This document shows, piece after piece, positions 5,188 through 8,834 of a DNA stretch of 64,000 nt. Made by a program: the position numbers and the translations under genes. Numbering within the stretch: position 1 is the first letter of the stretch; the number at the start of each line of letters is the position of its first letter. The notes beneath the pieces were generated by a model. It saw only the letters and a list, made by a program, of their open reading frames with translations, made no database searches and was not told the DNA's origin. This DNA is from Candidatus Accumulibacter affinis (GTDB lineage: Bacteria > Pseudomonadota > Gammaproteobacteria > Burkholderiales > Rhodocyclaceae). The stretch is from positions 110,051 to 174,050 of the forward strand of contig JADJOT010000013.1 in NCBI GenBank assembly GCA_016713625.1. The letters run 5' to 3'.

Positions 5188-5712
5188 TCAGGCTCGCGCA
5201 GGGCCTGCGGAACTGGCAGAGTCCGAATGCTCGCAGAGACTTCGCAGCTGATCGCGGTCGACTCGCCACAGGTCTGGCGTTTCCTGCCAGCAGCGCCGCT
5301 CCGCACTGGACATTGCGTAGTGCTGGCTTTCTTCGGCGCTTTGCTGCAGGAAGGCACCGAGGGTACGTCGCAGATGGCTCGGAACGGGTGGCATGCTGCC
5401 GTAGAAGAGCACCCATTTCTTACGCTTGATGATCAGAGTCGGGAAGTTCTCGACCTCGAGATCGCCGAGTTCCTCGGCGTGCACCTCGATATCGAGCCAG
5501 TAGAATCCGGCCGCCGGGAACTGAGCGGCCAATTCCTCGAAGCCGCTTCGGTATTCCCGGCAAACACCGCACCATTCGGCACATAGACAGACGACCAGAA
5601 ACTCTCCGACGATGGCAGAGGGCCACGCCGGCGCCGGGGATTGCTGGTGCGGAGTCAGGTCCATGACACGGCTGCCCGGGTAGCCGCGATGGTGGATCCC
5701 CTCGGACACCAT
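5188..5712 (-). CDS. Thioredoxin-fold protein (WCGVC active site) with a C-terminal extension.
   Basis: Contains LVVCLCAEWCGVCREY and FPTLII, which are thioredoxin-like motifs. An alternative ATG lies at 5664. The gene starts 25 nt downstream of the REC-repeat gene stop. Confidence 0.7.
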   Translation of the reverse strand: MVSEGIHHRGYPGSRVMDLTPHQQSPAPAWPSAIVGEFLVVCLCAEWCGVCREYRSGFEELAAQFPAAGFYWLDIEVHAEELGDLEVENFPTLIIKRKKWVLFYGSMPPVPSHLRRTLGAFLQQSAEESQHYAMSSAERRCWQETPDLWRVDRDQLRSLCEHSDSASSAGPARA

Positions 5713-5737: not shown

Positions 5738-7156
5738 TCAAGCACCAGCCTGTCCACGCATGAGTTGCTGAATGTGCCCGATGAGTTGCTCTTCGGGATA
5801 AGGCTTGCCGAGTACCACGTTGACTCCGGCGGCAACCGCTTCCGCACGCAATTGCTCACTGTCGGAAGTGACCATGATGATCGGGACGTTTGCGGTGTGC
5901 GGGTTGCCGCGTACCTGACGCGCCAGATCCAGTCCATTCATGCCCGGCATGTCCACGTCGGTAACCAGCAGGTCGGGCGCCGAACTCTCGATTTGCCGCG
6001 CCGCATCCAGGCCGTCTTCGGCCGTTACCACCTGATACCGGTGCGCGGCAAGGAGTCGGCCGGTCTTCACTCGTACGACCTTTGAATCGTCGGCCACCAT
6101 TACCACGGTCTGCTCCACGGTCTTGGCCGGCAACGCCAGCTTTCGCGTAACTTCGGCGAGTGCTCGACGCTGGGCTTCCTCGGCAGCCTGGCGTGCGGTC
6201 TCCCGCTCGATCGCTGCTTCAACGGCCTGGCGTTCGTCCTCCTCCTGACGAAGAGCTTCCTCCACCACCAGGCGGTCAGCCTCGCGCCGTGCGGCTTCCG
6301 CAGCGGCCTTGCGTTCAGCTTCGCGATGAGCGGCCTCCTCGGCTTCCTTGCGATCCGCTTCGCGACGAGCGGCTACCTCGGCCGCCTGGCGCTCCGTTTC
6401 CCGACGAGCGGCGACTTCAGCTGCCTGGCGCTCTGCTGCCCGACGAGCGGCGACCTCGGCTGCCTGGCGCTCCGCTTCCCGACGAGCGGCGACCTCGGCT
6501 GCCTGGCGCTCTGCTGCCCGACGAGCGGCGACTTCGGCTGCCTGATGCTCGGCTTCACGACGAGCGGCTACCTCGACCGCCCGGCGCTCCGCTTCCGCGC
6601 GTGCCGCTTCTTCGGCGGTCTTGCGCTCGGCTTCGCGACGAGCGGCGGCCTCGGCCCCTTGGCGCTCCGCTTCACGACGAGCGGCGACTTCGGCTGCCTG
6701 ATGTTCGGCTTCACGACGAGCGGCTACCTCGACCGCCCGGCGCTCCGCTTCCGCACGTGCCGCTTCTTCGGCGGTCTTGCGCTCGGCTTCGCGACGAGCG
6801 GCGGCCTCGGCCGTCTGACGTTCGGCTTCGCGGCGAGCGGCTAGCTCAGCCGCCTGGCGCTCCGCTTCACGATGCGCGGCTGCCTCGGCCGCCTTACGTT
6901 CGGCTTCGTGACGAGCGGCTTCCTCGGCGTTCTTGCGCTCCGCTTCACGATGCGCAGCGTCCTCGGCGGCTTGGCGTTCAGCTTCGCGGCGCGCGGCGAC
7001 CTCGGCGGCCTGACGGGTGGCCTCGGCGAGAAGCCGCTCACTCGTGTCTCGATCCTGCCGTTTGGCGGTCGATCGGCGAAGTTTGAAGAAATGCCGCGCC
7101 AGGATAGCCGCCAGCACACCCGCTGCGATCAACAACAAAATCTCAATGATTGACAT
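5738..7156 (-). CDS. Membrane-anchored response-regulator receiver (REC) protein with a long Ala/Glu/Arg tandem-repeat helical spacer.
   Basis: The track ORF 5738..7954 is over-extended. The real start is ATG 7156 (GAAGGA upstream), giving [28 protein letters not shown]: a TM helix followed by a positive flank. About 20 repeats of the type [13 protein letters not shown] follow. The C-terminal REC domain reads [11 protein letters not shown]...[13 protein letters not shown]...IIMVTSD...VLGKPY, so the acidic pocket, phospho-Asp, Thr and Lys are all present. Confidence 0.85.
6180..6997 (-). repeat. In-frame 39-bp (13-aa) tandem repeat array, about 20 copies, with a higher-order 156-bp duplication at 6521..6676 and 6677..6832.
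   Basis: Hand parsing of the protein gives [13 protein letters not shown] / [13 protein letters not shown] / [13 protein letters not shown] and so on. The two 156-bp units differ at 2 of their first 136 nt by hand alignment. Confidence 0.85.
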
Positions 7157-7571
7157 GGAAGGTCCTTCGCTCTGACGATCAGTTATCACCCTCGGAACCT
7201 GCCGAAGCAAACCCGGCCTCTGTCCCAACCATTGGCCGATGCAGCAGCCCAACTCGTAGCCACATGATAAAACGAATAACCAGGCGATTGGGTGATCGCT
7301 TCGTCGCGATGCTGCCCTGGCGTCGGTGCAAATAACGATCGAACAGCGACGGGCTGCCCGTCCGGGCCGGGCCACGACCGTCCGTCTGGAGAGCATGGTC
7401 CAGCCACCCACGCCCCCAACCAACAGGTCCTTGCGCAGGCCGACAAGGTCGCCGGCTCGACGCTCGCAGCCCGCCAGCCGGGTTTGCCAAGAAAGGGAGG
7501 AAAGCGTTCTCGGTCGACAAGCTCGCATAGCGGTCAGGCGCGGAAACTGAGAGAATCCGCCTTCGGGAACG

Positions 7572-7608
7572 CTGCGGGCCAATCGGAAGAGTCCAGATTG
7601 GCCCGCAG
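7572..7608. other. Perfect 12-bp-stem hairpin (CTGCGGGCCAAT-N13-ATTGGCCCGCAG) in a 544-bp gene-less region upstream of ribBA.
   Basis: The inverted repeat was read directly from the sequence. There is no flanking U-tract on either strand. Confidence 0.4.
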
Positions 7609-7700
7609 CGACACCACGGAACATCAGGATTCGCAGCGACTCCTGAACAACATGCTGTTCGCTGGCCCGGCAGACGGGTGCGGCGACAGAGGAGGCAGGA

Positions 7701-8834
7701 ATGGCACCACAAAGCACTTCTGGCGACGTCGCGCCGATCGAAGAGATCATTGTCGAAATGCGGGCCGGGCGCATGGTTGTCCTGGTAGACGAGGAAGACC
7801 GGGAAAACGAGGGCGATCTGATCCTGGCTGCCGAGCATGTAAGTCCCGAGGCGATCAACTTCATGGCGCGCTTTGGCCGCGGCCTGATCTGCCTGACTCT
7901 GACCGAGGCACGCTGCCGGCAACTCGGCCTGACGCAGATGGCGCGCGACAACAAGAGCCCCTACAGCACCGCTTTCACGGTCTCGATCGAAGCAGCCGAA
8001 GGGGTGACCACCGGCATCTCGGCGCAAGACCGCGCGCTGACCATCGCGGCGGCAGTGGCCAGAAACGCCCGGCCTGACGACATCGTGCAGCCAGGCCATG
8101 TCTTCCCGATCATGGCTCGCCCCGGTGGCGTCCTGGTACGTGCCGGCCACACCGAAGCCGGCTGCGACCTGGCGCTGCTGGCCGGACTCGAACCGGCGGC
8201 GGTGATCTGCGAAATTCTCAAGGAAGACGGCAGCATGGCGCGTCTGAGCGACCTGGTCGAGTTCGCCCGTGAGCATGGCCTCAAGATCGGCACCATCGCC
8301 GATCTGATTCACTACCGCAGTCGGCACGAAACGCTGGTCGAGCGCACGCTGTCCAAAACGGTGCAGTCCGAACACGGCGAGCTCACCCTGCACGCGTACA
8401 CCGACTGCACCTCGAATGAAGTGCACCTGGTCCTCACCAAGGGCGAGATCCGCCCGGACCGGGAGACGCTGGTGCGCGTACACGAACCGCTCTCGGTCGT
8501 CGACTTCCTCGATCCTGGCGGTGGTCGGCATACTTTCCCACTCAGCGTCGCCCAGGCAGCACTGGCGCGCGTGGAGGCCGGCGTGATCGTTCTCCTGCAC
8601 CGCCCCGAAAGCGGCCAGGACCTGCTGGCCATCCTGCGTGAGCCGGTCGCCACCAAACGTCCGGCCACGCGCTGGGATCCCCGCATCTACGGCATCGGCG
8701 CGCAAATCCTGCGCGACCTCGGGGTCGGGAAAATGAAACTTCTCTCGAGCCCGCGCCGGATGCCCAGCATGACCGGTTTCGATCTCGAAGTGACCGGCCA
8801 TATCGCCACGCCGGCAGACCTTGAAAGGCTCTGA
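7701..8834 (+). CDS. ribBA: 3,4-dihydroxy-2-butanone-4-phosphate synthase fused to a degenerate GTP-cyclohydrolase-II-like domain (RibBX-type).
   Basis: The N-terminal DHBP synthase region reads [40 protein letters not shown]. The C-terminal half aligns to RibA, but [18 protein letters not shown] lacks the Zn-binding Cys residues of RVHSECLTGD...RCDCG. Confidence 0.9.

Follow-up and report, generated by a model that had tools for sequence, protein, structure and literature searches.

A conserved membrane-anchored receiver protein with a variable, charged and predicted helical stalk in Candidatus Accumulibacter, and its kinship with the ChpA receiver

The window described here is a stretch of 64,000 nucleotides (nt) from Candidatus Accumulibacter affinis (GenBank assembly GCA_016713625.1, contig JADJOT010000013.1, positions 110,051 to 174,050 of the forward strand), and the gene under study, which encodes a membrane-tethered receiver protein, occupies positions 5738..7156 on its minus strand. 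It is an open reading frame (ORF) of 472 amino acids (aa) running from an ATG at 7156 to the stop codon at 5738-5740, with a Shine-Dalgarno-like GAAGGA, read from the sequence, at 7163..7168 (minus), 6 nt upstream of the ATG. The protein is composed of Met-Ser, a hydrophobic helix, a basic flank, a long Ala/Glu/Arg region and a receiver (REC) domain. A sequence-only reading of this DNA had proposed the same order of membrane helix, Ala/Glu/Arg helical stalk and receiver, and ORF, repeat and Pfam analyses together with homologues of the same layout confirm it. A longer alternative frame of 738 aa, with a TTG start at 7954, appears in the mechanical ORF list; it was rejected, as it overlaps the divergent ribBA gene (plus strand, 7701-8834) and its extension occurs in no homologue. 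The homologous proteins begin a few residues ahead of the membrane helix, so that the earlier worry that the true start might lie elsewhere and remove this helix does not hold. The architecture and the orientation can be taken as near-certain, and so can the place of the protein in a conserved family; it is a genuine signalling protein, hitherto uncharacterised. The most informative new result, missed in the sequence-only reading, is the kinship of its receiver with that of ChpA.

The N-terminal transmembrane (TM) helix comprises approximately aa 3-21 (7094..7150, minus strand; best 17-residue hydropathy window 2.88) and is followed by a basic juxtamembrane flank of aa 22-36 (7049..7093, minus), whose positive-inside pattern is kept across the family. 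A protein search returned 292 significant matches (E <= 0.001), of which the best 120 were compared, making 121 proteins with the query. A hydrophobic N-terminal helix with a basic flank is present in 115 of these 121, and the mean net charge over 115 full-length homologues is -1.1 on the N-terminal side of the helix and +3.8 in the 15 residues after it. By the positive-inside rule a basic flank faces the cytoplasm, and a REC domain whose phospho-chemistry is intact depends on phosphodonors of the cytoplasm. Because neutral or acidic residues precede the helix and strongly basic ones follow it, the stalk and the receiver are predicted to be cytoplasmic, behind a signal-anchor with its short N-terminus outside (N-out). 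The flank charges, conserved over the family, thus support the cytoplasmic orientation given in the sequence-only reading, whereas its label "TolA-like" has to be dropped: the predicted N-out anchor with a cytoplasmic stalk is the opposite of the TolA topology, Pfam and NCBIfam searches of the protein detected no TolA or TonB domain, and neither the N-in anchor, the periplasmic domain II nor the C-terminal domain III of TolA was found. A GxxxA-like motif, G13-A17, can be read in the sequence of the TM helix.

The Ala/Glu/Arg-rich stalk of aa 37-345 (6122..7048, minus) contains 33% Ala, 22% Glu and 20% Arg and has the charge pattern of a single alpha-helix (SAH). SAH and ER/K motifs are helices stabilised by salt bridges (PMC5347031, PMC4183817). 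In the stalk at aa 45-300, 48% of the residues are charged. Shuffled sequences give 28.6 +/- 4.3 pairs of opposite charge at i,i+4, where the stalk has 64 (z ~8-10, computed with an in-house script, not a published SAH predictor); at i,i+3 the stalk has 43 against 28.8, and at i,i+7 only 2 against 28. Large hydrophobic residues (Leu/Val/Ile/Met/Phe) make up 15 of the 256 residues (6%). No heptad or hendecad hydrophobic periodicity was detected in the stalk, and the Fourier spectrum peaks only weakly at ~13 residues, the length of the repeat; the heptad a/d periodicity of a canonical coiled coil is therefore lacking, while both marks of SAHs, an E/R/K-rich composition with i,i+4 pairs and the absence of a heptad seam, are present. 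The i,i+4 enrichment exceeds z = 3 in 82 of 115 homologues despite their differing stalk sequences, and it looks like a selected property. AlphaFold2, run with and without an alignment, renders the stalk as helical, mostly with a predicted local distance difference test (pLDDT) score near 90, in helices 3-169 and 184-337. These features fit a salt-bridge-stabilised SAH, probably monomeric, better than a heptad coiled coil, and the single-helix idea of the sequence-only reading is consistent with the i,i+4 excess, the i,i+7 paucity, the missing heptad seam and the AlphaFold2 helix.

Fully extended at 0.15 nm per residue, a stalk of 300 residues would measure ~45 nm, and the family range of 115-390 residues corresponds to ~17-58 nm. 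ER/K helices have a persistence length of ~15 nm, which would bring the longest stalks down to an effective reach closer to 30 nm. The receiver had been described as held at a fixed, and possibly tunable, distance from the membrane. With stalks of ~115-390 residues in the family, and proteins of 365-506 aa within the genus, a fixed distance is not supported; the length is free or tunable.

The core of the stalk is an array of 19 tandem repeats of 13 aa (39 nt) at aa 50-296 (6269..7009, minus). Tandem Repeats Finder reports a 39-nt unit in 19.0 copies at 6272-7011, with stronger super-periods of 78 and 156 nt, a repeat family with 39-nt spacing is also recovered, and the 13-residue register gives 19 clean units with degenerate units on either side, close to the ~20 repeats previously counted. 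Within the array, a four-unit block of 156 nt is duplicated (6519..6812, minus; 6519-6656 against 6675-6812) with 2 mismatches, and this near-perfect duplication indicates recent growth of the array. Short-read contigs at least 99% identical to the gene, from four independent wastewater or activated-sludge studies (2015-2024), cover the REC end to ~6455 and then ~6627 through the TM end and beyond, while the array centre (~6455-6627) is bridged by none of them; the contigs collapse there, and the unbridged stretch coincides with the duplicated block. Since the array flanks are reproduced in four unrelated studies, the design of the protein is independent of the assembly, and since no short-read contig bridges the centre, the exact copy number rests on this assembly alone.

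Some further observations concern the array. In one metagenome contig (run X7), 6637 is followed by 23 foreign letters and then by 6223, and several metagenome contigs carry clustered substitutions inside the array, which hints that other populations or close relatives have variant arrays. In one homologue of the same genus (G024, locus L009, G024:C5:416826-420905) the array is matched in two reading frames, either through an assembly frameshift inside the repeats or in a genuinely disrupted copy. "Shadow" ORFs of 308, 172, 92 aa and more lie over the array on both strands, including 6160-7086 (plus); their translations are Pro/Arg/Leu-rich or Gly/Leu-rich repeats that were matched in six-frame searches, and they are by-products of the repeat, not genes.

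The REC domain comprises aa 352-462 (5771..6103, minus) and matches Pfam Response_reg (PF00072) with E = 1e-23 and 84 bits against a cut-off of 30.2, over profile positions 1-110 of 111. The phospho-site residues are the acidic pair D356/D357, the phospho-acceptor D400 (in LVTDVDMP), T430 and K451, which align with D9/D10, D53, T83 and K105 of PleD. That the phospho-acceptor set is complete, as had been read from the sequence, is confirmed, and it is kept in 120 of the 121 compared proteins; judged from these residues, the domain is probably phosphorylatable. Its matches among PDB sequences are PleD and CheY-type receivers, and AlphaFold2 with a 46-sequence alignment predicts a (beta-alpha)5 fold, five strands and five helices in alternation, with a pLDDT of 94-98. 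Pfam and NCBIfam searches found no domain besides REC, in accordance with the output domain noted as absent, and the NCBIfam family models gave only generic receiver matches, all far below their cut-offs.

The protein is not the singular oddity it had seemed; it belongs to a family that is conserved but has no name. The best 120 of the 292 matches are annotated only as "response regulator" or "CheY-like"; by their source names the closest come from Candidatus Accumulibacter, and others from Propionivibrio, Piscinibacter, Albitalea, Rhizobacter and unclassified Burkholderiales. The full layout of TM helix, basic flank, A/E/R stalk and REC occurs in 115 of the 121 proteins, the other six including entries labelled partial. 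In these 115 the TM helix lies within the first 20-40 residues, and the stalk has ~115-366 residues with 25-48% Ala, 8-29% Glu and 11-24% Arg. The receiver is conserved at 55-80% identity, while the stalk conserves its composition and not its sequence or length. A homologue was found in all 24 other same-genus genomes searched, with complete proteins of 365-506 aa and several copies cut by contig ends. Among 301 genomes sampled evenly across the order, members were found only in the genus of the window and in one other genome (G313), where the protein has 514 aa and a stalk of ~390 residues; in the family of G313, 15 of 201 sampled genomes (~7%) carry a member. The distribution of the family is thus patchy. 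The combination is covered by no curated model of Pfam (PF00072 only) or NCBIfam, and no description of such a family was found in the literature searched, the incomplete coverage of which makes this weak evidence of novelty. New is the combination of a TM anchor, a variable SAH-type stalk and a ChpA-lineage REC without output domain, each part being of a known kind.

The best paralogue of the REC domain in the same genome is the C-terminal REC of a 1782-aa protein (44% identity, 103-108 bits), and all other REC domains of the genome score at most 68 bits against the query receiver. This paralogue contains four detectable Hpt (histidine phosphotransfer) domains, a CheA-type HATPase, CheW and REC. 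A multi-Hpt layout is typical of CheA of the type IV pilus (Tfp) class (PMC10542144). Its gene adjoins a gene for a methyl-accepting chemotaxis protein (MCP), a putative pilI-like ORF, assigned by position alone and without a match in NCBIfam, and two single-domain REC genes, in an arrangement that resembles the pilG-pilH-pilI-pilJ-chpA order of type IV pilus chemosensory systems. In the 301-genome sample, 168 genomes have a match at E <= 1e-18, and among the matches listed outside the genus nearly all lie in open frames of ~1,400-2,800 aa with 36-55% identity.

A maximum-likelihood tree of 58 receivers was built from 25 receivers of the family, 19 of ChpA, 13 others of the same genome and that of G313. 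The family REC domains are monophyletic (97/88) and lie inside a clade shared with the ChpA REC domains (92/94), and the single PilG/PilH-type receiver included (PilG-like) and the CheY- and OmpR-type receivers all fall outside it. One receiver beside CheY and flagellar-type CheA genes (G000:C2:169092-169460) sits on a very long branch inside the joint clade; its placement is unreliable, though its DDS...R motif resembles that of the group. The helix alpha1 is the main docking surface for phosphodonors. Its residues S358, V361, T365, R367 and L368 reach a conservation of 80% or more in the family and in the ChpA REC domains alike, and occur in 2, 0, 0, 1 and 3, respectively, of 13 other receivers of the genome. 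These comparisons make the REC domain an evolutionary offshoot of the receiver at the C-terminal end of a ChpA-type CheA kinase with several Hpt domains. The closest relatives and the tree grouping place it in the ChpA lineage; it is not part of a CheA polypeptide, and because only the TM helix, stalk and REC are present, the protein is a derivative of this lineage and not ChpA itself. Its gene does not belong to the pilGHIJ-chpA cluster, being on contig C13 with the cluster on C10.

The protein is best read as a membrane-leashed phospho-acceptor of the ChpA phosphorelay, a chain of steps to which, as a whole, a probability of roughly 0.4 is given. It would be a bitopic inner-membrane protein with a very short outward N-terminus, one helix and the remainder in the cytoplasm. 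The stalk of ~300 residues would form a long, semi-flexible SAH acting as a leash, at the end of which a complete stand-alone receiver, a copy of the ChpA-type REC with the same docking-helix signature, would exchange phosphoryl groups with the Hpt domains of ChpA. Such a receiver may serve as a membrane-confined phosphate sink or buffer, or as a phosphorylation-dependent docking site that would hold a partner within a few tens of nm of the membrane, and the length of its stalk may change fast via unequal recombination among the 39-nt repeats. ChpA as the phosphodonor is suggested by the REC kinship, and receivers attached to CheA, that of ChpA included, have been proposed as phosphate sinks or as sources or relays for Hpt domains (PMC10542144).

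Several points weigh against this reading. The gene is never found in a pil-chp cluster and is an orphan in all contexts examined, and its neighbours differ in every distant lineage examined. The family differs from the ChpA REC domains at the conserved positions K359, K364, G405 and A443, and at the K-3 switch, three residues before the conserved Lys, every one of the 120 members that could be scored has Leu, Val or Ile where ChpA has Tyr. REC kinship predicts a shared phosphodonor specificity only loosely. Co-occurrence with ChpA is uninformative: all 15 carriers in the family of G313 show a second match, ChpA-sized where listed, and as a test this has no power, with a ChpA-like match in ~90% of that family and ~56% of the order sample. 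The AlphaFold2 stalk is broken midway, at 184-187 or 169-183 (pLDDT 40-50; predicted template modelling score, pTM, 0.25-0.37), and distant members have Ala-richer and less charged stalks, some with up to 10% Pro, so that not every stalk of the family need be a rigid helix. The RNA-run contigs that cover the gene are shallow and could include DNA carry-over.

It is possible, if somewhat unlikely, that the same leashed receiver obtains its phosphate from another orphan or hybrid histidine kinase and has no part in pilus chemosensory signalling; its likeness to the ChpA REC would then be a matter of descent only. Such a donor would suit a gene that stands alone everywhere examined and never in a pil-chp cluster, in a genome with ~36 HATPase_c matches and two other Hpt-bearing proteins, and it would suit the family-specific substitutions in or near alpha1 (K359 and K364); however, the S358/V361/T365/R367/L368 signature of alpha1 is common to the ChpA REC domains and nearly absent from the other receivers of the genome, and the ChpA REC is the closest paralogue by a wide margin. 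It is improbable that the stalk self-associates, as an antiparallel hairpin or an Ala-rich dimeric coiled coil, instead of forming a monomeric extended helix, in which case the REC would be kept near the membrane or displayed in dimeric form, and the repeats would serve oligomerisation and not reach. Both AlphaFold2 models do split the stalk midway into two long helices, alanine, at 25-48% of the stalks, can pack in "alacoil"-type coiled coils, and G13-A17 gives the TM helix a GxxxA-like motif; against this, no heptad or hendecad periodicity is seen in a stalk whose 6% of large hydrophobic residues are spaced every 13 residues, and the i,i+4 ion-pair enrichment is strong, conserved and typical of SAHs. 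The apparent hairpin was not interpreted, as the scores at the break and the low pTM make the tertiary arrangement unreliable. Chemoreceptor arrays hold the kinase layer of CheA or ChpA ~20-30 nm below the inner membrane, as seen by cryo-tomography, and an extended helix of 115-390 residues (~17-58 nm) has the length needed to place a receiver there. That the stalk is matched to this depth, the protein being an array-docked third Pil-Chp receiver whose reach is tuned by repeat number, is considered quite improbable; if true, gain or loss of repeats would tune phosphate flux, and signalling strength would be set by a distance encoded in copy number.

An assembly artefact in the repeat region, or a decaying pseudogene, might be suspected from the unbridged array centre, the near-perfect 156-nt duplication and the two-frame array of the relative G024; given an uninterrupted reading frame, array flanks that four independent studies reproduce on both sides and intact genes for 365-506 aa of the same design in relatives, complete single-contig genomes among them, this is highly improbable. 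The concern that the repeats were an artefact, raised with the sequence-only reading, is thereby reduced to the copy number alone. A TolA-like periplasmic or envelope-spanning protein, with stalk and head outside the cytoplasmic membrane, shares with the query only a superficial domain order of TM helix, long charged helix and C-terminal globular domain. It is close to refuted by flank charges that are the reverse of an N-in anchor over 115 homologues, by a REC domain whose intact phospho-chemistry calls for cytoplasmic phosphodonors and by the lack of a detected TolA or TonB domain.

Downstream, 25 nt past the stop codon, lies a gene of the thioredoxin fold with a WCGVC motif (5188..5712, minus; Pfam Thioredoxin, E = 1.6e-8). 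The neighbour pointed out in the sequence-only reading is thus real, but its synteny is confined to the genus, being seen at 6 same-genus loci and absent in distant relatives. The conserved part of this gene starts at about residue 19-28 in relatives, so that translation probably begins at residue 17, an internal Met (MDLTPHQQ...), instead of at the listed ATG. No cognate kinase is encoded nearby, as was also stated before; the contig has its closest HATPase_c 35 kb from the gene, at ~41.4 kb of the window. Six distant loci show six contexts, including a pyrroloquinoline quinone (PQQ) operon with TctC, MarC with TauD, an ATP-binding cassette (ABC)/MacB exporter and minCDE with a pyrophosphatase. 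Gene neighbourhood was rejected as a clue to the partner, since the contexts differ in all six distant loci and the thioredoxin gene is genus-only. In two of the six, one of them from Propionivibrio, an ATPase gene of MshEN+T2SSE (PilB/MshE) type is found near the member, at a distance of one gene or ~6 kb (L037:8647-10440 and L038:14008-15068). In the genome of the window, the nearest T2SSE gene on the contig is ~100 kb away, and the proximity elsewhere may be coincidence.

Metatranscriptome contigs were found for the stretch that encodes the REC domain and for the 5' end with the TM helix, and one spans the junction into the thioredoxin gene, which suggests low-level expression and possible co-transcription with that gene, allowing for possible DNA carry-over. 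One metatranscriptome contig continues from the gene past the ATG as far as 7498, some 340 nt upstream, and could represent a long 5' untranslated region or a transcript from the divergent rib promoter. An Rfam scan between the gene and ribBA (7157-7700) gave no flavin mononucleotide (FMN) riboswitch or other RNA above threshold, a promoter scan near the gene returned nothing, and terminator-like matches were not above the number in shuffles.

Response regulators are usually seen as freely diffusing proteins of the cytoplasm whose site of action is set by their binding partners. The tethering of a stand-alone receiver on a variable charged helix would be a simple, genetically encoded means of confining a phospho-signal in space, and as long SAH spacers have been studied mainly in eukaryotes, an example from bacterial signalling would be useful. 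The kinship with ChpA provides a concrete hypothesis that can be tested: the phosphorelay of type IV pilus chemosensory signalling may have a further branch or sink, leashed to the membrane. One of the carriers is Accumulibacter, the organism central to biological phosphorus removal, for which surface behaviour and aggregation are important.

Among known systems, the closest relative is the REC of ChpA, the Tfp-class CheA of the Pil-Chp system of Pseudomonas aeruginosa, with 44% identity in the same genome and 40-55% across the order. The two share the alpha1 signature, the motifs DDS...VR..T.RLL and LGKPY.E and their grouping in the tree, and both are receivers without an output domain, that of ChpA having been proposed as a sink or source for Hpt domains (PMC10542144). 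The query REC differs in being a separate gene product, anchored at the membrane by a stalk and encoded outside the pil-chp cluster, and in its K-3 switch, which is aliphatic where ChpA has Tyr.

ZipA, a cell division protein of E. coli, exposes a short N-terminus on the outer side of the membrane and continues, after its single TM helix, with a charged region and a long linker in the cytoplasm, a tether that holds a C-terminal globular binding domain; the predicted topology of the query matches that of ZipA and not that of TolA. The linker of ZipA is a flexible Pro/Gln-rich chain and its head binds FtsZ, so that it has neither the charged helix nor the phospho-receiver that the query combines. 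There is no sequence relationship between the two, and no ZipA domain was detected in Pfam and NCBIfam searches of the query protein. TolA has an N-in anchor, with its Ala/Lys/Glu-rich helical domain II and its head in the periplasm; it shares with the query the order of TM helix, long helical domain and C-terminal globular domain and the low-complexity composition of the stalk, but the topology of the query is opposite, its flank charges are inverted and the TolA C-terminal domain is missing.

The ER/K SAH spacers of myosin VI, myosin X and INCENP resemble the stalk in being Glu/Arg-rich with dense i,i+4 pairs and no hydrophobic seam. Such spacers act as semi-flexible leashes that set the reach of a signalling domain from its anchor (PMC4571873, PMC4183817, PMC5347031), and a well-studied eukaryotic parallel is the "dog leash" by which INCENP tethers Aurora B (PMC4571873). 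The stalk of the query differs in being a predicted helix that is bacterial and membrane-anchored, in its 33% Ala, far richer than in classic ER/K sequences, and in its exact 13-residue repeats.

FrzS and AglZ of Myxococcus xanthus, regulators of pilus and gliding motility, also combine a REC domain with a very long helical domain and lack an enzymatic or DNA-binding output. They are soluble, with an N-terminal REC and true heptad coiled coils, and the receiver of FrzS is without phospho-acceptor chemistry; in the query, the REC is C-terminal, membrane-anchored and without heptads, and it keeps the phospho-acceptor residues, unlike FrzS. Stand-alone receivers such as CheY, PilG/PilH, DivK and CpdR are comparable in that the query is likewise REC-only and presumably acts via protein-protein contacts, but these receivers diffuse freely or are recruited by partners, while that of the query is covalently tethered to the membrane.

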